Shown here: one piece after another, positions 4,513-16,594 of the stretch
Layout: each line of letters opens with the position of its first letter
Position numbering within the stretch: position 1 is the first letter of the stretch
Position numbers and translations under genes: made by a program
Assembly (NCBI GenBank): GCA_964394685.1
Contig: CAYMYO010000001.1
Coordinates: forward strand, 14 to 64,013
Direction: 5' to 3'
DNA: 64,000 nucleotides
Origin: an uncultured Gammaproteobacteria bacterium
GTDB lineage: Bacteria; Patescibacteriota; Microgenomatia; UBA10105; UBA927
The notes under the pieces: model-generated
What the model was told of the DNA's origin: nothing
Database searches by the model: none
What the model saw: the letters and a program-made list of their open reading frames with translations, nothing else

Positions 4513-4532
4513 CTTACTTTCTAAAAAGTAAA

Positions 4533-4733
4533 TTACGCTGCTAATTTTACATTCTTTGCAGCCGGTCCTTTTTCTCCATCAACGACGTCAAATTCAACTT
4601 TCGCTCCAACTTGAAGCGCGTCAAACATAACACCGACTAGATCTTTTGAATGAAAGAAAAGGTCTTTTGTTTCGCCGTCACGGGCGATAAAACCAAATCC
4701 TCTATCTGTTTTTACTTTAATTGTACCAGTCAT
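4533..4733 (-). CDS. cspA: Cold-shock protein (CspA family).
   Basis: MTGTIKVKTDRGFGFIARDGETKDLFFHSKDL: RNP1/RNP2 cold-shock domain, 66 aa. Confidence 0.9.
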   Translation of the reverse strand: MTGTIKVKTDRGFGFIARDGETKDLFFHSKDLVGVMFDALQVGAKVEFDVVDGEKGPAAKNVKLAA

Positions 4734-4784
4734 AGTAGTTTGTCTCCTTTCTGTTCACCATTATAACAGATTTTGCAGTATTAC

Positions 4785-4858
4785 GTGATTTCGAACGGTT
4801 ACTCAATGGTTACAAGGCTATTTTCAATCAAATTTTAGTTCGAAATCGTTGAGCGGAA
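4785..4858 (+). repeat. Copy 1 of an ~75-95-nt repeated element with a 10-bp terminal inverted repeat (GATTTCGAAC...GTTCGAAATC). It overlaps the promoter region of the LigT-like gene.
   Basis: GATTTCGAAC at 4787-4796 and GTTCGAAATC at 4838-4847 flank a conserved core GGTTAcaAGGCTATTTTcaaTCAAA, followed by GAGCGGAA. It is near-identical to the copy at 5434-5529. Confidence 0.6.
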
Positions 4859-4871
4859 CCAGAACCTAAGA

Positions 4872-4880
4872 TGATATAAT
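4872..4880 (+). promoter_or_regulatory. Extended -10 promoter element (TGaTATAAT) immediately upstream of the LigT-like ATG. It implies a leaderless or near-leaderless transcript.
   Basis: TGATATAAT ends 8 nt before ATG 4888. Confidence 0.4.
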
Positions 4881-4887
4881 TCTAGCT

Positions 4888-5412
4888 ATGCTTCAGAGTG
4901 TTATCCTTATCCCTATTCCTTCAGCGGATCCTGTTATTGGTGAATGGCGAAAAAAATATGATCACGTAGCACTCCATGGGATTCCGGCACATATTACACT
5001 TCTTTTTCCATTTAAAGAATCATCTCAAATTACTCAAGAAATAATAAAGAAACTCGAAGGTATATTTTTGAAGGTTAAACAATTTCCTTTTACCTTAGAT
5101 AGGATAAATACATTTCCGAACGTGATTTTTCTTGATCCGAATCCAAGAGATGAGTTTATTAAGTTAATCGAAGCAATTGTTCATATTTTCCCGGAAAATT
5201 CGCCCTATGAAGGAAAGTACTCGTCGATAAATCCTCATGCAACTATTGCACAGATAAGTGATATTGAAAAGACAGATTCATTGAAGAAACAAATAGAAGA
5301 AGATATTTCAATAAACTTTCCAATTCAATGTCTGGCAAAGGAAGCATGGTTAATGATTGAAGATGAGAAAGGTGAATGGCATATTCAATCAAAATTTCAA
5401 TTTCTTTCCTAG
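4888..5412 (+). CDS. 2H phosphoesterase superfamily protein (LigT / 2'-5' RNA ligase-like).
   Basis: Two H-x-T/S-x motifs (HITLLF and HATIAQ) with the spacing typical of LigT-like 2H enzymes. GC content is lower than the surrounding core genes. Confidence 0.55.
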   Translation: MLQSVILIPIPSADPVIGEWRKKYDHVALHGIPAHITLLFPFKESSQITQEIIKKLEGIFLKVKQFPFTLDRINTFPNVIFLDPNPRDEFIKLIEAIVHIFPENSPYEGKYSSINPHATIAQISDIEKTDSLKKQIEEDISINFPIQCLAKEAWLMIEDEKGEWHIQSKFQFLS

Positions 5413-5433
5413 TGTCTTGTACCCCCATACTGC

Positions 5434-5529
5434 ATGATTTCGAATGATTGCTCCAGGGTTATGAGGCTATTTTTAGTCAAATATTAGTTCGAAATCGTTG
5501 AATTTGAATTTTCAACTGTTTGAGCGGAA
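5434..5529 (+). repeat. Copy 2 of the repeated element (same orientation as copy 1). It carries a 19-nt insertion that forms an extra small hairpin.
   Basis: GATTTCGAAT at 5436-5445 and GTTCGAAATC at 5487-5496. The extra hairpin GTTGAA-tttgaatt-TTCAAC lies at 5497-5516, then GAGCGGAA at 5522-5529. The copy is preceded by TGTACCCCCA (5417-5426). Confidence 0.6.
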
Positions 5530-5639: not shown

Positions 5640-6209
5640 ATGAGATTCAAAGAAAATTATTTAGCCGAAATAAATAGAAAAAAATCGCAAGCAGAAATTA
5701 ATGCTACAAATGCTCAACTAGAAGGAGAACGTCTTAAAACAATTCGCTCAGCAAATCGTGCCCGTTTTGAAGCTGAAGAAGCTCGTCAAAAAGCCAAATT
5801 TTTTGAATTTCTTCAATCCACACCAATACCTCAATTAATGCACGATGCAAAAGATGTTATTCCTGGTGTTGAACTTAATGAAAGTACTCGTGGAGGACTA
5901 AACCTTCAATCCTGGCAAGAAGGAGAATTAAAAATCGAAAGATTTTCTCAGCAATATGATTTCGAATGGACTGACTATGAAGTTAGTTTTAATAATGATC
6001 TTAGTATTTCTGTTCATGTTCAAGATGATGGTGCAGTCACATTTAGATTCGGAGGCCCAGCAGATTGCGATGATCGGTTCCAACAACGAAGAACAATAAA
6101 TTATCGGTCATGGTCACAAAATCCAAGTTTACTTGATAATACCCTATTACATGCAATACATCATCCTACAAAACATCATCAAGTTAATATTGTATCAAGC
6201 CCGTTTTAA
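5640..6209 (+). CDS. Hypothetical protein (189 aa), very AT-rich.
   Basis: Complete ORF downstream of a good promoter. No recognisable domain. The N-terminus looks coiled-coil (EINATNAQLEGERLKTIRSANRARFEAEEARQKAK). Confidence 0.45.
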   Translation: MRFKENYLAEINRKKSQAEINATNAQLEGERLKTIRSANRARFEAEEARQKAKFFEFLQSTPIPQLMHDAKDVIPGVELNESTRGGLNLQSWQEGELKIERFSQQYDFEWTDYEVSFNNDLSISVHVQDDGAVTFRFGGPADCDDRFQQRRTINYRSWSQNPSLLDNTLLHAIHHPTKHHQVNIVSSPF

Positions 6210-6237
6210 TATCTATTTACCTAACGTGTACCCCCAG

Positions 6238-6300
6238 CCGGATTCCCGTTCGACTCGAAGACTCGCTCAGAGCGCAGCGAACCGGATTATTTTGTGCCGC
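6238..6300 (+). terminator. GC-rich structured element with terminator-like architecture downstream of the 5640 gene.
   Basis: CCGG(attcccg)TTCG ... CGAACCGG is an interrupted inverted repeat with an internal CGCTC-a-GAGCG hairpin, followed by ATTATTTT. It is preceded by TGTACCCCCA (6229-6238), the same 10-mer found after the LigT-like gene. Confidence 0.4.
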
Positions 6301-6397
6301 GTAAGGGAGTCGGACCCTTGTTGATAGATTGAGAATCTACCGTACTAACCGTTATACGAACGCGGCAGAAGTTACAGCTAATTCTATCAATAACCTC

Positions 6398-6426
6398 TTG
6401 ACATCACAAGCGAAGTTCGATAGACT
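6398..6426 (+). promoter_or_regulatory. Sigma70-like promoter for greA.
   Basis: -35 TTGACA at 6398-6403, a 17-nt spacer, -10 TAGACT at 6421-6426. Confidence 0.5.
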
Positions 6427-6462
6427 TTGAAAACTTACTAGGGATTGAAAGCCCTATTTTTT

Positions 6463-6918
6463 ATGGATAGACCATTATTGACAAAGCAGGGACTTGCGGA
6501 ATTACAGGTTGAATATAAAGATCTGGTTGGTGTTAAACGGCCGGCGGCTGTTTCCAGGCTTTCTGATGCGCGCGAGCTTGGGGATTTAAGTGAAAACAGC
6601 GAGTATGCATCGGCAAAACAGGATCTTGCGTTTATTGACGGCAGAATTGCCGAACTTGAAGAAATCCTTCATGGTGCAAAAATCATTACCTCTCACCCGA
6701 AAGGGCTTGTTGATGTTGGATGTAAAGTGACGATTCATCTGAACGGAAAAAAAGACATTTTTCATGTCGTTGGTGAGTGGGAAGCGGATCCGTCAAACAA
6801 AAAAATTTCTCATTCATCTCCGCTTGGCAAAGCCCTCATGGGAAAAAAGGTAGGAGAAATAGTAGAAGTGGAAGCTCCTGCTGGCAAGGTCCTCTATAAA
6901 ATTATTGAGATAGAATAA
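6463..6918 (+). CDS. greA: Transcription elongation factor GreA.
   Basis: N-terminal coiled coil (LTKQGLAELQVEYKDL...RPAAVSRLSDARELGDLSENSEYASAK) and a C-terminal FKBP-like domain. ATG 6463 is preferred over the TTG at 6445. Confidence 0.85.
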   Translation: MDRPLLTKQGLAELQVEYKDLVGVKRPAAVSRLSDARELGDLSENSEYASAKQDLAFIDGRIAELEEILHGAKIITSHPKGLVDVGCKVTIHLNGKKDIFHVVGEWEADPSNKKISHSSPLGKALMGKKVGEIVEVEAPAGKVLYKIIEIE

Positions 6919-9273: not shown

Positions 9274-9894
9274 ATGAAAAAACTTCTTGTTGCTACAACA
9301 AATCCAGGTAAGCTTGCGGAACTTCAGGAATTTTTGTCTGATCTTCCTATTACACTTGTGAGTCTCAAAGATGTTGGGATTACGTCGCATGTTGAGGAAA
9401 CCGGAAAAACATTTAAAGACAATGCGCTCCTGAAAGCAACCCATTATGCAAAAGATTCAGGACTTCCAACGATTGCTGATGATGGAGGGCTTGAAATTGA
9501 CGCGTTAAACGGAGAACCTGGTGTGAATTCCCATCGATGGATTCATGGGGACAGAGAAGATGAAGACGAGGAGCTCATACAACATGCACTGATTCGATTA
9601 AAAGATACTCCCGAAGAAAAGCGTGGAGCACAACTTCATTTAGTCATAGCTTTTGCAACGCCTGACGGGAAAACGTACACTAGTGAAGGACGTATCCGAG
9701 GGATTATTCCATATAAGGCGTCTTCATACCGACGCAAAGGATTTCCATACCGGTCGCTTCTGTATCTTCCCGAGTTGAAAAAGTTTTACAACCATGATGA
9801 ATTGACCGAAGAAGAGAATAAAACATATAATCATAGGAAGAAGGCAATAGAGGACCTGAAGACCATTATTCGTGACACACTATTGTCATCCTGA
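9274..9894 (+). CDS. rdgB: Non-canonical purine NTP pyrophosphatase (RdgB/HAM1, dITP/XTP pyrophosphatase).
   Basis: VATTNPGKLAELQEF...IADDGGLEIDALNGEPGVNSHRW: Ham1 family signature. Confidence 0.85.
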   Translation: MKKLLVATTNPGKLAELQEFLSDLPITLVSLKDVGITSHVEETGKTFKDNALLKATHYAKDSGLPTIADDGGLEIDALNGEPGVNSHRWIHGDREDEDEELIQHALIRLKDTPEEKRGAQLHLVIAFATPDGKTYTSEGRIRGIIPYKASSYRRKGFPYRSLLYLPELKKFYNHDELTEEENKTYNHRKKAIEDLKTIIRDTLLSS

Positions 9895-9909
9895 ACTTGT
9901 TTCAGGATC
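9885..9909 (+). repeat. Conserved hairpin element H1 (GTCATCCTGAA-cttgt-TTCAGGATC). It overlaps the rdgB stop codon.
   Basis: 8-bp stem 9888-9895 / 9901-9908 with loop CTTGT. The rdgB TGA (9892-9894) lies in the 5' arm. It is near-identical to H5 at 16541-16565 apart from a compensatory T:A to C:G change. Confidence 0.65.
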
Positions 9910-9926
9910 TATCGGAAAAAGAAAAA

Positions 9927-9954
9927 TGGATGCTGAAATGAATTCAGCATGACA
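9927..9954 (-). repeat. Conserved hairpin element H2 (reverse orientation; its reverse complement is TGTCATGCTGAA-ttcat-TTCAGCATCC).
   Basis: 8-bp stem ATGCTGAA 9930-9937 / TTCAGCAT 9943-9950. It is the reverse complement of H3 at 11874-11901 apart from loop differences. Confidence 0.65.
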
Positions 9955-9970
9955 AAGAAAACAAAACGCT

Positions 9971-11215
9971 ATGTTAGATATTCATTTCATTAAAGAGAAT
10001 TTAGATCTCTGCAAACTCGCTGCTAAAAATAAAAACCGTGAAGTAGAGTGGGAGAAATTGTTATCTCTTGATGAGACGAGACGGAAGTTAATTACATCTG
10101 TTGAGGATTTACGGGCGCAGCGGAATGAAATCAGCAGAAAACCCGTTGAACAAGCCCGCGTTGAAGGAAAACAGATCAAAGAGTCGTTAAGGGGTCTGGA
10201 AGAAGAGCTTCGGCGGGTTGAAGAAGAACTACAGATACTTCTTTTGACTGTTCCTAATGTTCCGGATAAATCAGTGCCGGTGGGGAAAGACGCTTCAGGA
10301 AATGTAGAGATTCGGAAATGGGGAGATCTTCCCGTGTTTGATTATACACCGCGTGATCATATTGAATTAGCAAAGAAAAATGATTTAGTTGATTTTGAAC
10401 GGGGAGCAAAAGTCGGAGGATTTCGAACATATTTTACAAAAAATGAAGCAGTGCTTCTCGAAATGGGACTCCTTTTTTATGCAATGCAGAAACTGGTGGG
10501 AAAAGGATATACACCTCTTATGGCTCCATCGCTATTAAAAGAGTTCACGCTTTTTGGAATTGCACAATTTCCATGGGGAAGAGATGAAGTATATCATTTG
10601 GAGAAAGACGATGTATATCTTGCAGGTACTGCGGAACAACCAGTGACGGCATATTTATCTGATGAGATATTGATGGAAAAGGATTTACCAAAGAAGTTTG
10701 TTGCATTTTCTCCTTGTTTTCGAAGGGAATCAGGAAGTTACGGAAAGGATACAAAAGGGATTTATAGAGTGCACCAATTTAATAAAATTGAACAAGTAAT
10801 TATTTCAACTTCTGATTCGAGTAAATCTCTTACTCTTTTAGAGGAATTACTCGCTAACGCAGAGGAAATTCTTCAAGATTTAAAATTGCCGTATCGGGTG
10901 CTGTCGATGTGCACGGGAGATATGGGTGAACCGCAAGTGAAAAAATACGATATTGAAACCTGGATGCCTAGTAGAAATGCATATGGCGAAACAATGTCCG
11001 ATTCATTTATGGGAGATTTTCAAGCAAGAAGACTGAAAATTCGATACCGGGGGAAAGACGGAAAAATGGTATTTTGCCATACGCTCAATAATACAGCAAT
11101 TGCATTTCCACGAATTCTTATTCCAATATTTGAAAATTATCAGCAAAAAGATGGTTCAATCCGCGTGCCCAAAGTCCTCGTTCCCTTTGTCGGGAAGGAT
11201 GTGATCTCGCGGTGA
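9971..11215 (+). CDS. serS: Seryl-tRNA synthetase.
   Basis: N-terminal coiled-coil arm followed by class II core motifs (FRRESGSYGKDTKGIYRVHQFNKIE; TLNNTAIAFPRILI). Confidence 0.95.
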   Translation: MLDIHFIKENLDLCKLAAKNKNREVEWEKLLSLDETRRKLITSVEDLRAQRNEISRKPVEQARVEGKQIKESLRGLEEELRRVEEELQILLLTVPNVPDKSVPVGKDASGNVEIRKWGDLPVFDYTPRDHIELAKKNDLVDFERGAKVGGFRTYFTKNEAVLLEMGLLFYAMQKLVGKGYTPLMAPSLLKEFTLFGIAQFPWGRDEVYHLEKDDVYLAGTAEQPVTAYLSDEILMEKDLPKKFVAFSPCFRRESGSYGKDTKGIYRVHQFNKIEQVIISTSDSSKSLTLLEELLANAEEILQDLKLPYRVLSMCTGDMGEPQVKKYDIETWMPSRNAYGETMSDSFMGDFQARRLKIRYRGKDGKMVFCHTLNNTAIAFPRILIPIFENYQQKDGSIRVPKVLVPFVGKDVISR

Positions 11216-11859
11216 GTCGTGTTCTCTCATATTTAATTCCTCAGAAGCTCGCGGAGTTTTCAACGAAATATAACAGGTATATCCGGGTCAATGATGAATA
11301 TGGTGAAAAAAAGTTATTAGTGAACGGTTCACAGCAATCAGGGAAATACATTCGAAAGCTGTGGAAGGGCGCATGTAAAAAATTTGGTATTTTAGAAAAT
11401 AGAAATTGGAAAAAAATTTTGGTGTTGGGAGTTGGCGGCGGCACAGTGATTGAGCTATTGCATGGTCAGTTTCCAAATGTCCGTATCACCGGTGTTGATA
11501 TTGATTCAACGATCATTGATATCGCAAAGAAGTATTTTTTGTCTGGAGACATCGCGTATATTTATTTTAGTGTTGCTGATGCGAAGAAATTTATTCGGGA
11601 GAATAACTTGAAATATGACTGTATTATCATTGATATCTTTATCGGCAATGCTGTTCCTGATTTTGTTAAAACAAAAGCGTTTTTATCAGATTGCAAGCAA
11701 AAACTTTCAAAAAAAGGCGCTTTGTGCATCAATTATCTGCAAGATCGCGAATACAAAGAGAAGTCAGAGGAGTTTCATCAAGTGCTCCGGAGTCTTTTTC
11801 CAACCGTTCATGATTTTTGCATTGCAAATAACAGATTTTTCTTCGCATCCATAGTATAA
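11212..11859 (+). CDS. Spermidine synthase-like SAM-dependent methyltransferase-fold protein.
   Basis: GTG start overlapping the serS stop. ILVLGVGGGTV (GxGxG SAM-binding motif), ITGVDID and DCIIIDIF match the PABS/spermine synthase family topology. Confidence 0.5.
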   Translation: MSRVLSYLIPQKLAEFSTKYNRYIRVNDEYGEKKLLVNGSQQSGKYIRKLWKGACKKFGILENRNWKKILVLGVGGGTVIELLHGQFPNVRITGVDIDSTIIDIAKKYFLSGDIAYIYFSVADAKKFIRENNLKYDCIIIDIFIGNAVPDFVKTKAFLSDCKQKLSKKGALCINYLQDREYKEKSEEFHQVLRSLFPTVHDFCIANNRFFFASIV

Positions 11860-11873
11860 TTGGTGCATGCGTT

Positions 11874-11901
11874 TGTCATGCTGAATTTATTTCAGCATCC
11901 A
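11874..11901 (+). repeat. Conserved hairpin element H3 (TGTCATGCTGAA-tttat-TTCAGCATCC).
   Basis: 8-bp stem 11878-11885 / 11891-11898. Confidence 0.65.
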
Positions 11902-11917
11902 TCTGAAAACGGATGAG

Positions 11918-11942
11918 ATCCCGAAATAAATTCGGGATGACA
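11918..11942 (-). repeat. Conserved hairpin element H4 (reverse orientation; ATCCCGAA-ataaa-TTCGGGATGACA).
   Basis: 8-bp stem 11918-11925 / 11931-11938. Together with H3 it forms a larger imperfect palindrome across the secA 5' region. Confidence 0.65.
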
Positions 11943-11954
11943 AGAATATGTACT

Positions 11955-14672
11955 ATGTTTAAGTTCTTAGGCAAATTACTTGATAGCAACGAAAAGGAGA
12001 TTAAAAAGCTCCGGTTCATTGTTGAGAAGGTCAACAGTCTTGAGCCGGAAATTAAAAAATTAAAAGATAGTGAGTTTGCCTCAAAAACAGCAGAGCTGAA
12101 AACACGTCTTACAACCGGCGATACGCTCGATAATCTTCTTCCGATGGCCTTTGCCATCGTCCGGGAAGCAGCACTACGGACAATCGGAGAACGCCACTAT
12201 GATGTGCAGTTGATCGCATCGTATGCGCTTCACTTTGGAAAAGTAGCTGAACAGCGGACCGGAGAAGGAAAGACGTTATCAGCAATACCGGCATTGTATT
12301 TAAATGCACTATCTGGACGAGGTGCGCATTTGGTGACGGTAAACGATTATCTTGCCCGCAGGGACGCTGGATGGATGGGACCGGTATATCACTTCCTTGG
12401 TATGTCAGTATCAGCAATTATTTCCGAACAGTCGTTTATGTACGATCCGACAGTTGAGGATAAAGAAGCAGGGGATTGGAGACTGAAACACCTGCGTCCT
12501 GTAACCCGTAAAGAAGCGTACGGGGCGGATATTACGTATGGAATAAATAGTGAATTCGGATTTGATTATCTTCGGGATAATATGGTGTCAGATGCATCCC
12601 AACTGGTCCAACGGGGCTTTCACTACGCAGTTGTTGATGAGGTTGATTCGGTTCTTATTGACGAGGCGCGGACTCCGCATATTATTTCGGCTCCGGATAG
12701 TGAGGCGACACAACGCTATTATGAATACGCAAAGATTGTCGATAAGCTCACGCCGACAATGGATTATGTCATTGATGAAAAACTTCGTACTGCTCATTTG
12801 ACTGATCATGGAATAGTCAAAGTTGAAAAAGTGATGGGACTTGGAAATATTTACGAAGAAGATTTCGAAACAGTGCACCATCTAGAAGCAGCTTTGAAAG
12901 CCCGGACGTTATTTCTCAAGGATAAAGAATACATTGTGAAAGACGGACAAGTGGTGATTGTTGATGAATTTACCGGACGACTTTTGACAGGGCGACGGTT
13001 CAGTGAAGGCATCCATCAAGCAATTGAGGCAAAAGAGGGAGTGGTTATTCAACAGGAGAGTAAGACACTCGCAACCGTGTCACTTCAAAATTATTTTAGA
13101 ATGTATGAAAAATTATCCGGCATGACGGGGACAGCTGCTACAGAAGCAGAGGAGTTTCGAAAAATTTATAACCTTGATGTACTGGTTATTCCAACTCATA
13201 GACCAATGATTCGGAAAGATTTTCCTGATAGTGTATATAAAACAACCCGCGCTAAATATGTGGCAATAGCCAACGATATTATTGACTGTCACAAGCGTGG
13301 ACAGCCTGTTCTTGTTGGAACAACATCGATTGAAAAAAATGAAATCATTAGCGACTTACTGAAGCGAAAAGGAGTTGCTCATCAACTTCTTAATGCAAAA
13401 AACCACCTTCGGGAAGCTCTTATTATCGCTGAAGCAGGGAAACTAGGAGCTGTGACAGTCGCAACGAACATGGCTGGCCGGGGAGTTGACATTATTTTGG
13501 GTGGATCCAAACCGGAAGAAGTACTATTTGCAACGAAAAAAGAGTATGAAAAAGCACAAGAAGTATGGAAAGAAGATCATAAAAAGGTGATAGAAGCCGG
13601 TGGTCTTCATGTCATTGGATCTGAACGACATGAAAGCAGGCGTATTGATAACCAGCTTCGGGGTCGGGCTGGTCGTCAAGGCGATCCGGGATCTTCGAGG
13701 TTTTACGTGTCACTTGAAGATGACATTATGCGTCTTTTTGGCGGTGATCAAGTTGCAAAACTCATGACGATTTTCAAACTTCCGGAAGATGTACCTCTTG
13801 AGCATCCGATGGTGTCTCGTTCTATTGAACAAGCACAGACAAAAGTAGAAGGGTTTCATTTTGATTCACGCAAGCACTTGGTTGAATATGATGATGTGTT
13901 AAATAAACACCGCGAAATTATCTATCGACTTCGCAGGCGTGCGCTTCTTGAGGAAGCGCAAAAAGATTTAATACTGAAAGATCTTGAGAATGAAATAACA
14001 ACGCTTGTTAGTGTTGCGAAACAAGATGGAACATTGGATACGGAAAAAATTATTCAGGAATTTTCAACCATTATTCCGTTTGACAGCAATTCACAAGCAC
14101 AGTTAAAAGCACAACTAGCACAATTACCTGCTGATGCAGATGCAATAGACTTTTTACAAAGGTTAAGCCGCGATATGTACGAAAATCGTGAGAAACAAAT
14201 CAGCCCTGAGATTATGCGGCAGGTTGAACGTTGGGTGACGCTATCAGTTATTGATAATTTGTGGATGGATCATTTAGATGCCATTGATGATCTGCGGGAG
14301 GGAATTGGACTTCGTGGGTATGGACAACGCGATCCGCTGGTTGAATACAAAAACGAAGCGTACTCTATGTTTGAACGGCTCATGGCGACCATTAGCAGTG
14401 ATGTCGTGCACCGGATTTATAAAGTACAGGTGCAACTTCCTCCAGGAACGTCTCAGAATAAATCCGTGGAATTGCCAACTGAGACAAAATTGACTAAAGA
14501 AGCAAAGCGAGCCAGAACAAATGAAGAAGCGCAACAAAAACCAGCAGTAAATGCAAAAAAGGAATTAGGACGCAATGACCCATGCCCATGCGGAGCAATT
14601 AATCCAGAAACAGGAAAAATATATAAATATAAAAAATGCGGGATGATTAATGCGCCTTGGCATAAAAAATAA
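11955..14672 (+). CDS. secA: Preprotein translocase ATPase SecA.
   Basis: MFKFLGKLLDSNEKEIKKL aligns to the E. coli SecA N-terminus. Walker A QRTGEGKT; DEAD-like VDEVDS. The C-terminal metal-binding tail is CPCGAINPETGKIYKYKKC. ATG 11955 is preferred over the upstream in-frame ATGs that lie inside the hairpin elements. Confidence 0.95.
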   Translation: MFKFLGKLLDSNEKEIKKLRFIVEKVNSLEPEIKKLKDSEFASKTAELKTRLTTGDTLDNLLPMAFAIVREAALRTIGERHYDVQLIASYALHFGKVAEQRTGEGKTLSAIPALYLNALSGRGAHLVTVNDYLARRDAGWMGPVYHFLGMSVSAIISEQSFMYDPTVEDKEAGDWRLKHLRPVTRKEAYGADITYGINSEFGFDYLRDNMVSDASQLVQRGFHYAVVDEVDSVLIDEARTPHIISAPDSEATQRYYEYAKIVDKLTPTMDYVIDEKLRTAHLTDHGIVKVEKVMGLGNIYEEDFETVHHLEAALKARTLFLKDKEYIVKDGQVVIVDEFTGRLLTGRRFSEGIHQAIEAKEGVVIQQESKTLATVSLQNYFRMYEKLSGMTGTAATEAEEFRKIYNLDVLVIPTHRPMIRKDFPDSVYKTTRAKYVAIANDIIDCHKRGQPVLVGTTSIEKNEIISDLLKRKGVAHQLLNAKNHLREALIIAEAGKLGAVTVATNMAGRGVDIILGGSKPEEVLFATKKEYEKAQEVWKEDHKKVIEAGGLHVIGSERHESRRIDNQLRGRAGRQGDPGSSRFYVSLEDDIMRLFGGDQVAKLMTIFKLPEDVPLEHPMVSRSIEQAQTKVEGFHFDSRKHLVEYDDVLNKHREIIYRLRRRALLEEAQKDLILKDLENEITTLVSVAKQDGTLDTEKIIQEFSTIIPFDSNSQAQLKAQLAQLPADADAIDFLQRLSRDMYENREKQISPEIMRQVERWVTLSVIDNLWMDHLDAIDDLREGIGLRGYGQRDPLVEYKNEAYSMFERLMATISSDVVHRIYKVQVQLPPGTSQNKSVELPTETKLTKEAKRARTNEEAQQKPAVNAKKELGRNDPCPCGAINPETGKIYKYKKCGMINAPWHKK

Positions 14673-14828
14673 TTGCGTAGTCCGCCGAAGCGAACATTCG
14701 ACTGCGTGGATGTAGTCCTCGAGGCGAATTTGAGCGGAGGAGGAGTGCGGTTCCGGCAAGAAGTGGAAACGGTGTCATTACCCGAAGTTAGGTTAAAATT
14801 TTGAGGGTGGCGCGATTTTGGCGCGATT

Positions 14829-15608
14829 TTATCCTTCCAGTCTCGCAAAAGCTCCGGATTTTTTGGCTTGGCGGTAGGTATATTGGAAAATGAGGCATGC
14901 TAAAATAAACCAGATCCCATTGAGCATTGTAGCAATCCCTATGGCCTTCCAATCCAGTATTCCGGTTATTAGTTGTTTGCGTATCGATTCAAAAATATAG
15001 GTAGCCGGTAGCCCATATGAAATCCAACGAATTTGGACAGGTAATACTGATACGGGGTAAAATACTGCGGCAAATGGTTGAATGAGAAATACGAGTGCCC
15101 ATGATAAAGATTGCACCTGAGTGCTATAACGGAAAATTAAGCTAAGCGACAGTATGCCAACTGCCCAGGAAAAGATAAGTAGTTCAATGATATAAATTGC
15201 GTTCATCCAACCGATGGAAAGAAGAGAAAAATTATAGAGGAAATAGGCAATAACAGCAGACATGATAATGGCTAAGAGTGCTTTTATGGTTCCTGATATC
15301 ATTTGTCCAACAATAAACTCGGTCATGGATAACGGGGTGATAAATAAGCCACTGAAACTTCGTGCCCATATTTCCCATAGCGCTCCAACAGCAATAGCGT
15401 ATTCTCCGACCCAAATAGCGTTCCAGAAAATCATTCCGATTATCACATAGAGTCCTTGCGGGCTATCTGTTTGTTTAAATGAAAGAGCAATGAGCGCGTA
15501 TACCCAAATTTGAACAGCAGGATTCCAAAACACGTCTACCCATGTTTCCATGCTATGCCGGAAATGGTACCATGTGTGCAATAGCACTATTTTGAGCCTA
15601 TGTATTCG
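14829..15608 (-). CDS. ABC-2 type transporter permease.
   Basis: Six predicted TM helices. It overlaps the upstream ATPase gene by ~11 nt. Start taken at MRIHRL. Confidence 0.65.
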   Translation of the reverse strand, partial: RIHRLKIVLLHTWYHFRHSMETWVDVFWNPAVQIWVYALIALSFKQTDSPQGLYVIIGMIFWNAIWVGEYAIAVGALWEIWARSFSGLFITPLSMTEFIVGQMISGTIKALLAIIMSAVIAYFLYNFSLLSIGWMNAIYIIELLIFSWAVGILSLSLIFRYSTQVQSLSWALVFLIQPFAAVFYPVSVLPVQIRWISYGLPATYIFESIRKQLITGILDWKAIGIATMLNGIWFILACLIFQYTYRQAKKSGAFARLEG

Positions 15609-16545
15609 CATACGTTCCTTCGGAAATTGACAAAAATACGTCTTCAAGATCAGGTTTTTCTACATTAATATCCGTAATCCACACTTTGTGTTTCCTAAAA
15701 CCAAATAATACTTTTGGTATATCAGTTTCGGCAAGTGATATTTCAACGACATGTTCGCGCGGAAACGTGAATACAAGATTTTCATTGATAAGATATGTTC
15801 GTACAGGTGTTTGATCACCATCAAACGTTAGGATTAAATTAGAATTTCCGACACGTTTGGTAAGCTCAAGCGGTGTATCTTCAGCAACAATTTTTCCATG
15901 ACTGAGAAACATCACCCTGTCGCATAATTGTTCCACTTCTCCCATATTGTGACTGGTAAACAGAATGGATATGTGTTCTTTTTGTTGTAGGAGTTGAATA
16001 AGCTCAATTATTTTATTTGCAATATCCGGATCCAGGCTCGCTGTGGGCTCGTCCATAAGAAGTAATTTAGGGTTATTAAGAAGCGATTTAACTAAAACAA
16101 CGCGTGTTTTTTGTCCAGAAGATAAATGCCAAAATAGCTCATATTTCAATTCTTCGATTTCAAGCAGTGATAGCAGTTCGTTGATTCTTTTTTTTGCGTC
16201 CGGTACTGCATAAAGCCCTGCGTAAACAATAAGATTCTCAAAAACAGTCATGCGTGACTGAACATGAGTATACGCTGAAGCAAAATTAATTCTCGAAAGA
16301 ATATATTCGCGTTCTTTTGGAAATGGTTTAGAGAAATACGAAATCGTACCGGAAGTTGGTGTCATAAGATCCAAAAGCATCTGAATTGTGGTTGTTTTTC
16401 CAGCGCCATTTGGGCCTAGTAAGCCCACTATCTCTCCCTCTCCCACAGAAAAAGAAATGTGATCAACAGCAGTGATTGCGTTGAACTTCTTCGTTAACTC
16501 GTGAACTTCCAGAATCGGTGTATTCATAATTATTAATGTTGTCAT
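15598..16545 (-). CDS. ABC transporter ATP-binding protein (ABC-2 / drug-export type).
   Basis: Walker A GPNGAGKTT, ABC signature LSSGQKTRV, Walker B LLLMDEPTASLD, plus a C-terminal extension. Confidence 0.85.
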   Translation of the reverse strand: MTTLIIMNTPILEVHELTKKFNAITAVDHISFSVGEGEIVGLLGPNGAGKTTTIQMLLDLMTPTSGTISYFSKPFPKEREYILSRINFASAYTHVQSRMTVFENLIVYAGLYAVPDAKKRINELLSLLEIEELKYELFWHLSSGQKTRVVLVKSLLNNPKLLLMDEPTASLDPDIANKIIELIQLLQQKEHISILFTSHNMGEVEQLCDRVMFLSHGKIVAEDTPLELTKRVGNSNLILTFDGDQTPVRTYLINENLVFTFPREHVVEISLAETDIPKVLFGFRKHKVWITDINVEKPDLEDVFLSISEGTYANT

Positions 16546-16565
16546 CCCGAACTTGTTTCGGGATC
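16541..16565 (+). repeat. Conserved hairpin element H5 (GTCATCCCGAA-cttgt-TTCGGGATC). It overlaps the start codon of the divergent ABC ATPase gene.
   Basis: 8-bp stem 16544-16551 / 16557-16564. CAT at 16543-16545 is the minus-strand ATG. Confidence 0.65.
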
Positions 16566-16594
16566 CACGGTATTTATATTATAATAGCAATGCG

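Follow-up and report, generated by a model that had tools for sequence, protein, structure and literature searches.

Three gene junctions in the 64-kb stretch of contig CAYMYO010000001.1 analyzed here (the window, meaning the whole of that stretch) carry small hairpins, called H1 to H5, and the question they raise is what class of repeat they belong to, what recognizes them and how they came to lie between genes. An earlier sequence-only reading had described a REP/BIME-like family (REP, repetitive extragenic palindrome) that might be lineage-specific and associated with a REP-associated tyrosine transposase (RAYT). The feature is real, and it belongs to a described superfamily of repeats with a described partner enzyme; it is neither lineage-specific nor RAYT-linked. 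We consider it probable that the units are CGTC/TGTC REPs serving as single-stranded DNA (ssDNA) sites for an Ssn-type nuclease, and that the paired units, or doublets, are derivatives of an SRM-ssn-SRM cassette that lack the ssn gene. The anatomy of the units, the covariation of their stems, the clustering of their GAA-N5-TTC subfamily around GIY-YIG genes and their presence or absence at orthologous sites are direct observations.

As defined by reading and by pattern searches, the unit is 28 nt long and occurs five times: a TGTC tag, a stem arm AT[C/G]C[T/C]GAA, a 5-nt loop, the complementary arm, and a C followed by two bases. H1 (9884-9911, plus strand) has the stem ATCCTGAA/TTCAGGAT, the loop CTTGT and the tail CTA, and facing it head-to-head is H2 (9927-9954, minus strand), with the stem ATGCTGAA/TTCAGCAT, the loop TTCAT and the tail CCA. 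The stem ATGCTGAA/TTCAGCAT recurs in H3 (11874-11901, plus strand; loop TTTAT, tail CCA), which is arranged head-to-head with H4 (11915-11942, minus strand; stem ATCCCGAA/TTCGGGAT, loop TTTAT, tail CTC), and the stem of H4 recurs in turn in the singleton H5 (16540-16567, plus strand; loop CTTGT, tail CCA). All five copies of the sequence-only reading were recovered, at coordinates 0-3 nt from those it gave. Every unit has the TGTC tag, an 8-bp stem that starts with A-T and then T-A, and a 5-nt loop, with GTC before the palindrome and C right after it. The pattern TGTCATSCYGAANNNNNTTCRGSAT matched five times in the window against 0.00 expected from 100 dinucleotide shuffles, and no further copies were found in the remaining 47 kb, either by a search allowing two mismatches or by a tolerant scan for the tag with an imperfect hairpin.

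Stem variation among H1 to H5 falls at two positions (C/G and T/C), both compensated on the opposite arm, while the middle C is constant; the compensation claimed earlier therefore stands, but for two variable positions instead of three. The pairs had also been described as tandem, but both are inverted, running head-to-head as TGTCAT...ATGACA over 71 nt (H1/H2) and 69 nt (H3/H4), and both are heterodimers, of CCTGAA with GCTGAA and of GCTGAA with CCCGAA, respectively. The predicted fold of a single unit, an 8-bp stem with a 5-nt loop, has an energy of −8.9 to −11.4 kcal/mol with RNA parameters and −6.1 to −7.4 kcal/mol with DNA parameters. For H3 and H4 together, the suggestion that they form one larger palindrome agrees with the predicted fold of the pair, a long imperfect hairpin of −33 kcal/mol (RNA) or −18.4 kcal/mol (DNA).

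The same sequence family extends far beyond the window. Scanning 185,579 species genomes (596 Gb) with a degenerate pattern returned at least 145 matches at at least 120 loci, to be compared with about 17 chance matches on a uniform-composition estimate. The variable positions are complementary in 145 of the 145 matches listed, where chance would give roughly one in four, and the loops among these matches are conserved as CTTGT, TTTAT or CTTGA. Carriers among the matches listed, which include cultured isolates, are Patescibacteria of many classes, Melainabacteria, Treponema, Bacteroidota, Ignavibacteriota, Elusimicrobiota, Nitrospirota, and Alpha-, Gamma- and Deltaproteobacteria (Rickettsiales among them), together with one metagenome-assembled genome (MAG) of a DPANN archaeon, a Nanoarchaeota. 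The motif was also present in 49 IMG/VR viral contigs, many copies adjoining portal, terminase or capsid genes. With dozens of phyla and a set of viral contigs among its carriers, the family is not lineage-specific.

Conservation across these hosts is confined to the unit itself. Among 198 hairpin cores collected without any constraint on their flanks, 188 had a GTCA tag on one side, and in 176 of the 188 tagged units the palindrome was followed by C. The first base of the tag was T in 158 and C in 24 of those 188 units, whereas GTC was invariant; conservation extended 1 nt ahead of the tag and 2 nt past the stem, and no farther. Six of the eight stem pairs had changed on both sides, and the covariation amounted to 108 cells, compared with 29.6 ± 7.9 in shuffles, 0 of 500 of which reached as high a value. 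Sister variants with other stems, for example GTCATTCCCGCGAAGGCGGGAATCC and GTCACCCTGAACTTGTTTCAGGGTC, occur at the same loci, and the commonest arrangement is a head-to-head pair with unlike stems. Of the 145 listed sites, 90% fall between genes, in sequence of which 85% is coding. Because tag, loop-closing pairs and trailing C are nearly identical across phyla and phages, specific recognition by a protein is favored over a function of structure only. Some loci also hold regularly spaced arrays of 4-11 units, namely L082 (147-869, ∼145 nt), L037 (1490-1677, ∼82 nt), L045 (59-279, ∼98 nt) and L039 (47-247, ∼42/93 nt); orientation and two stem classes alternate in the first three, and the four units of L039 share one direction and one stem.

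Clustering of the open reading frames (ORFs) near 145 hairpin sites showed no recurrent neighbor, either within 150 nt or over whole loci including the viral ones; the partner is rare per site, as expected of a single-copy gene. A combined motif and phmmer screen located small GIY-YIG ORFs directly beside hairpin clusters at two loci, one in a Kerfeldbacteria MAG (L032), where the hairpin beside the gene is identical to the 26-nt core of H5, and one in a viral contig (L176). The protein family comprises at least 7,117 clusters, the best 120 of which are 95-97 aa long at 72-80% identity; it matches the Pfam GIY-YIG domain with E = 4e-17, and has no PDB match by sequence and no specific NCBIfam model. 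Some database members of the family start with MLNLFQHL, which is translated hairpin. Literature searches for literal sequences and peptides had no match.

We fetched 80 metagenome loci by family alignment (a single-protein query returned only itself), and in 71 of them a hairpin lay within 150 nt of the GIY-YIG ORF. Hairpin density was 7.5/kb in the 100 nt upstream and 8.6/kb in the 100 nt downstream of the ORF, against 0.2-0.4/kb beyond 500 nt, a local enrichment of 20- to 40-fold, and 70 of the 131 hairpins flanking these genes were of the GAA-N5-TTC type. Where both sides carried hairpins, the order TGTCAT-hairpin, gene, hairpin-ATGACA (+,−), the outward-tag orientation seen in the window doublets, was found at 21 of 33 loci. 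The invariant residues Y8, Y19 and E66 of the family have the spacing of Y6, Y17 and E64 in SsnA. On the viral contig (L176, 541-1040, and L177; IMGVR_UViG_3300045988_146177, a predicted viral contig) the ssn-like GIY-YIG gene is immediately followed by a group of five or six tagged hairpins. The ssn-like database proteins P0121-P0240 are encoded mostly on contigs of 0.5-3 kb, which would fit assembly breaks at a repeated cassette.

A described counterpart of this arrangement is that of Chenal et al. (2025, Nat Commun 16:2388; PMC11893778), in which ssnA, a gene for a 94-aa single-domain GIY-YIG protein of the cd10448 family, has on either side the NTS hairpin of Neisseria or a related hairpin, the Ssn-related motif (SRM), in a layout (NTS-ssnA-NTS) that resembles an insertion sequence. 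SsnA binds the hairpin and the C that follows it, only as ssDNA and on the tag-bearing strand; both cutting and binding depend critically on that C and on the 3 nt in front of the palindrome, and the cut falls a few nucleotides upstream of the tag (PMC11893778). The system lowers transformation by NTS-bearing DNA, an effect shown only for N. meningitidis, and motif and ssn gene were associated at a rate of 71% (PMC11893778). Our hairpins share with NTS and SRM the orienting xGTCAT tag, the hairpin, the critical C after the palindrome and the position on both sides of a ∼95-aa single-domain GIY-YIG gene with the same catalytic spacing; they differ from NTS in the stem, ATSCYGAA here as opposed to ATTCCCGC with a 4-nt loop. 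The association of hairpins with GIY-YIG genes seen here therefore independently reproduces a published finding for a different stem subfamily, and is not a discovery.

As repeats, the units correspond to the CGTC-tagged REPs of Di Nocera, De Gregorio and Rocco (2013, BMC Genomics 14:522; PMC3733652). These often have TGTC as the tag, stems of 8-9 bp with complementary A and T at their start, loops of 4-5 nt and CCA-like tails, and they form mostly head-to-head dimers, with heterodimers in the classes CGTC-2 and CGTC-3; they were reported in five phyla and include dRS3 of Neisseria and RPE-4 and RPE-6 of Rickettsia (PMC3733652). The window units resemble CGTC-2 in the TGTC tag, the 8-bp stem with an A/T start, the 5-nt loop, the CCA tail (three of the five), the head-to-head heterodimers, the intergenic position and the lack of an adjacent transposase, and the Sulfurovum CGTC-2 peptide RHSELVSGS (supplement, PMC3733652) back-translates to CGTCATTCnGAACTTGTTTCnGGATC, with the same GAACTTGTTTC core. 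Unlike the CGTC-2 repeats described, they occur in a Microgenomates-group host of the candidate phyla radiation (CPR), and the family reaches further phyla, one DPANN MAG and viral contigs. The units thus appear to fit the CGTC-tagged REP superfamily with a CGTC-2 architecture, the class being judged from stem and loop lengths and one supplementary example. Together with the head-to-head dimers and the strong stem covariation, this bears out the proposal of a REP/BIME-like repeat under selection for the hairpin.

The surroundings of the units show them to be insertions. By Pfam, the genes flanking the three junctions encode Ham1/RdgB, SerS, a methyltransferase, SecA, an ABC-2 permease, an ABC ATPase and an EamA transporter, and the top SerS matches (91% and below) were from Microgenomates-group and Gottesmanbacteria CPR MAGs, with no exact match to the window SerS on record. 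For comparison we used 12 syntenic loci from relatives (L121-L127 and L258-L262), whose serS and secA share 72-84% nucleotide identity with the window. Compared with these genus-level relatives, each of the three window sites holds an insertion, and no other hairpin copies were found in about 150 kb of the relatives' DNA. Empty orthologous sites in the relatives mean that the window insertions are recent, and the window lineage has recently gained at least four of its five units.

At the rdgB-serS junction, hairpins are missing from 10 of the 10 relative loci that span it; L124 is uninformative there, since another gene lies upstream of its serS. The rdgB stop overlaps the serS ATG (..CTATGTTAG.. 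or ..CACACTATGTTAGA..) in L121, L123, L125, L126 and L127, the same unbroken rdgB/serS sequence is found at the contig end of L122, and L258-L262 have a His_Phos_1 gene between rdgB and serS, also without hairpins. The segment inserted in the window covers 85 nt (9884-9968), consisting of the doublet at 9884-9954 and AAGAAAACAAAACG, and is bordered by CTAT at 9880-9883 and at 9969-9972, whereas the empty sites have a single CTAT; this may be a 4-nt target duplication or may be chance. H1 had been said to contain the rdgB stop codon, and comparison with orthologues confirmed this: they end in ...TLC*, the window protein ends in ...TLLSS*, and the new stop is the TGA at 9892-9894 within H1.

The second segment, 92 nt at the methyltransferase-secA junction (11863-11954), replaces 4-6 nt of the empty sites. 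To its left is a −10-like TATAAT (11856-11861) and to its right ATG 11955, the start of secA by orthology; the H3/H4 doublet ends 12 nt before that ATG. Of the 11 relative loci extending to this junction, 10 are empty there (L121-L125, L127, L258 and L260-L262). The sole filled relative is L126, whose doublet has the same offsets but differs in its spacer and flanks and has CCTGAA instead of CCCGAA as its right-hand stem. The identity matrices for serS and secA are star-like, at 78-85%, and judging from these sequences the two doublets may share an ancestor and differ by compensatory change, or a hot spot may have been hit twice. At three junctions (two in the window and the one in L126) ATGACA stands 12 nt from an ATG, but this spacing was not general, since an ATG was linked in this way at 20 of 145 sites compared with 12 of 145 on the other side.

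In the divergent gap between the ABC ATPase and EamA genes, 43 nt including H5 (16528-16570) stand in place of the ATATC of L127. The longest ORFs on both sides begin inside the hairpin, at 16545 (the ATG within ATGACA) and at 16553 (a TTG in the loop). Judged by the L127 orthologue, the ABC ATPase starts with ATGAATACACC, window 16527-16525, 12 nt outside the H5 tag, and the EamA gene starts at ATG 16595. Because the L127 orthologues start outside the hairpin, the longest-ORF starts within H5 are artefacts, and H5 most likely does not hold the ABC ATPase start codon that had been assigned to it. Possible target duplications are CTAT at the first site and ATG at the second, with none at the third.

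An account in terms of an Ssn nuclease would run as follows. The source genome would have, or once have had, a cognate Ssn, which would bind and cut these GAA-N5-TTC stems whenever replication, repair or DNA uptake leaves them as single strands. The doublets would be non-autonomous, ssn-less derivatives of an SRM-ssn-SRM cassette that spread, and any effect on the expression of rdgB, serS, secA or the ABC genes would be a by-product.

Some observations weigh against this account. An ssn homologue is absent from the 64-kb window. None of the five window units matches the published SRM search string HGTCWYN(0-2)YYVSBRHN(0-5)WNVSBRGN(0-2)RNCYNB, which was built by hand from 29 genomes (PMC11893778), whereas an NTS control does; the string misses them because they have A/T at stem positions where it demands S/B/R. 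The ends of the inserts are uneven, lying 0, 4 or 11, and 12 nt upstream of the tags, and the short flanking repeats (CTAT and ATG) could perhaps be chance.

A bolder version, which we put forward only tentatively and think doubtful, is that the head-to-head doublets are still mobile, as non-autonomous elements for which an Ssn-type GIY-YIG ssDNA nuclease acts in trans to copy them, and that they cross phyla, possibly carried by phages, and invade CPR gene junctions. If true, this would be transposition or homing built on a GIY-YIG enzyme instead of a DDE or HUH enzyme. Since CPR bacteria rely on taking up DNA and their genomes are tiny, a "restriction" of ssDNA might matter to them. The doublets resemble miniature inverted-repeat transposable elements in being short non-coding units (69-71 nt) with terminal inverted repeats (TGTCAT...ATGACA) and in being present or absent at orthologous sites. 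They differ in that there is no consistent target-site duplication, no uniform end and no related DDE transposon, and in that single units occur.

The alternative that survives best, and which we still regard as unlikely, is a main role at the RNA level, with the hairpins retained by selection as terminators or as stem-loops that stabilize or process mRNA. Such a role would suit the stability of the predicted RNA hairpins, with −27 and −33 kcal/mol reached by the doublets, and also the preference of the 145 listed sites for gene 3′ ends and for convergent gaps over co-directional and divergent ones. In the window, each doublet follows a promoter-like site (TTGACC-18-TATAAT at 9802-9831 for the first, TATAAT at 11856-11861 for the second), and therefore the two would be transcribed as part of the serS and secA 5′ leaders. 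However, orientation relative to transcription is random, at 17:17 and 15:13 in 62 co-directional gaps, no Rfam match was found at the hairpins even at E ≤ 1, SsnA does not bind RNA (PMC11893778), and the relatives manage without the elements at the same junctions. The suggestion of a terminator role fares no better, since a U-rich tail is present in one of the five units only: H2, on the minus strand, passes the terminator rule with its T-rich tail and the other four fail, and the two doublets stand just upstream of start codons and not past the ends of operons. Any RNA-level roles may be side effects.

Much less probable again is that the units are GTAG-type REPs or REPINs mobilized by a RAYT, that is, by a Y1/HUH tyrosine transposase. 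The likeness is considerable, since the window units are short tagged hairpins in inverted doublets at intergenic positions, and GTAG REPs, REPINs and BIMEs with their RAYT/TnpA-REP likewise combine a tagged hairpin recognized as ssDNA, inverted doublets, many copies and a flanked single-copy partner. Their tag is GTAG and their enzyme an HUH/Y1 transposase, however, where we find TGTC and a GIY-YIG protein; REPIN arms are nearly identical, whereas the window doublets are heterodimers; and REP-RAYT systems are mostly lineage-specific and vertically inherited, whereas the TGTCAT hairpins are nearly identical across phyla. No Y1 transposase was found in the window, and none was recurrent near 169 hairpin loci; the proposed RAYT link is not supported, and the recurrent partner is the small GIY-YIG nuclease, as published for Ssn (PMC11893778). 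Di Nocera et al. likewise found that CGTC repeats lack a dedicated transposase and that no RAYT is flanked by them (PMC3733652). The only RAYT-like gene retrieved, with Y1 transposase sequences as queries, was in L099 and is flanked by a different palindrome, ACCCTYGCAGGGTT. That gene (Flavobacterium luteum, 4524-5478) is a frameshifted RAYT-like Y1 transposase made up of ORFs 5002-5265 and 4555-4986 on the minus strand, and a TGTCAT hairpin lies 13 nt beyond one ACCCTYGCAGGGTT-type palindrome, placing two REP systems side by side. Least credible of all is that the units are double-stranded operators of a dimeric transcription factor regulating serS, secA and the ABC transporter. Such a role would suit their palindromic form and the nearby promoters and start codons at each of the three window sites. 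Against it, the orthologous promoters of relatives lack the units, an operator would not tolerate free stem covariation, an asymmetric tag is conserved, and unrelated phyla and phages have thousands of copies.

With the units read as CGTC/TGTC REPs and probable Ssn sites, the window offers a new occurrence of a described repeat family, and its importance is modest. What is new is the CPR (Microgenomates) host, the filled and empty orthologous sites, a subfamily missed by the SRM string, and the viral copies, once together with an ssn-like gene. Members of the GAA-N5-TTC subfamily are common in many phyla and flank ssn-like genes that form a large and highly conserved clade; because the SRM string is blind to them, the published number of SRMs and their host range are probably too low. 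The filled and empty sites are direct evidence of repeat gain at gene junctions on a genus-level timescale, and a route for spread across phyla is suggested by the copies on predicted viral contigs, one of which also has an ssn gene. For annotation, the hairpins create false starts and altered stops, as where the longest ORFs of the ABC ATPase and EamA genes begin and at the C-terminus of RdgB.

Several further features of these junctions were noted. In the empty sites TATAAT stands 6-8 nt before the secA ATG, and in L121, L122 and L127 it stands 6-9 nt upstream of the secA and EamA starts, the window counterparts being at 11856-11861 and 16580-16585. Such short spacing suggests that mRNAs in this CPR lineage have no leader or almost none, and the hairpin insertions would give them structured leaders. 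Between positions 6150 and 6720 of L126, a YhbQ-like GIY-YIG ORF (6244-6570, minus strand) lies between two copies of the 27-nt direct repeat GGTGCTTGCACTCATACATGGGACGAT; it adjoins a tRNA-like sequence, has no TGTCAT hairpins and looks like a separate insertion. The His_Phos_1 gene of L258 is preceded by a T-box-like leader (6054-6212; Rfam RF00230, 58.7 bits, E = 1.8e-12, below the gathering score of 93), and the matching gap of L260 looks similar; the window has neither this gene nor the leader. Within the window, the sole Rfam match at the gathering threshold was a tRNA gene at 6295-6366 on the minus strand.

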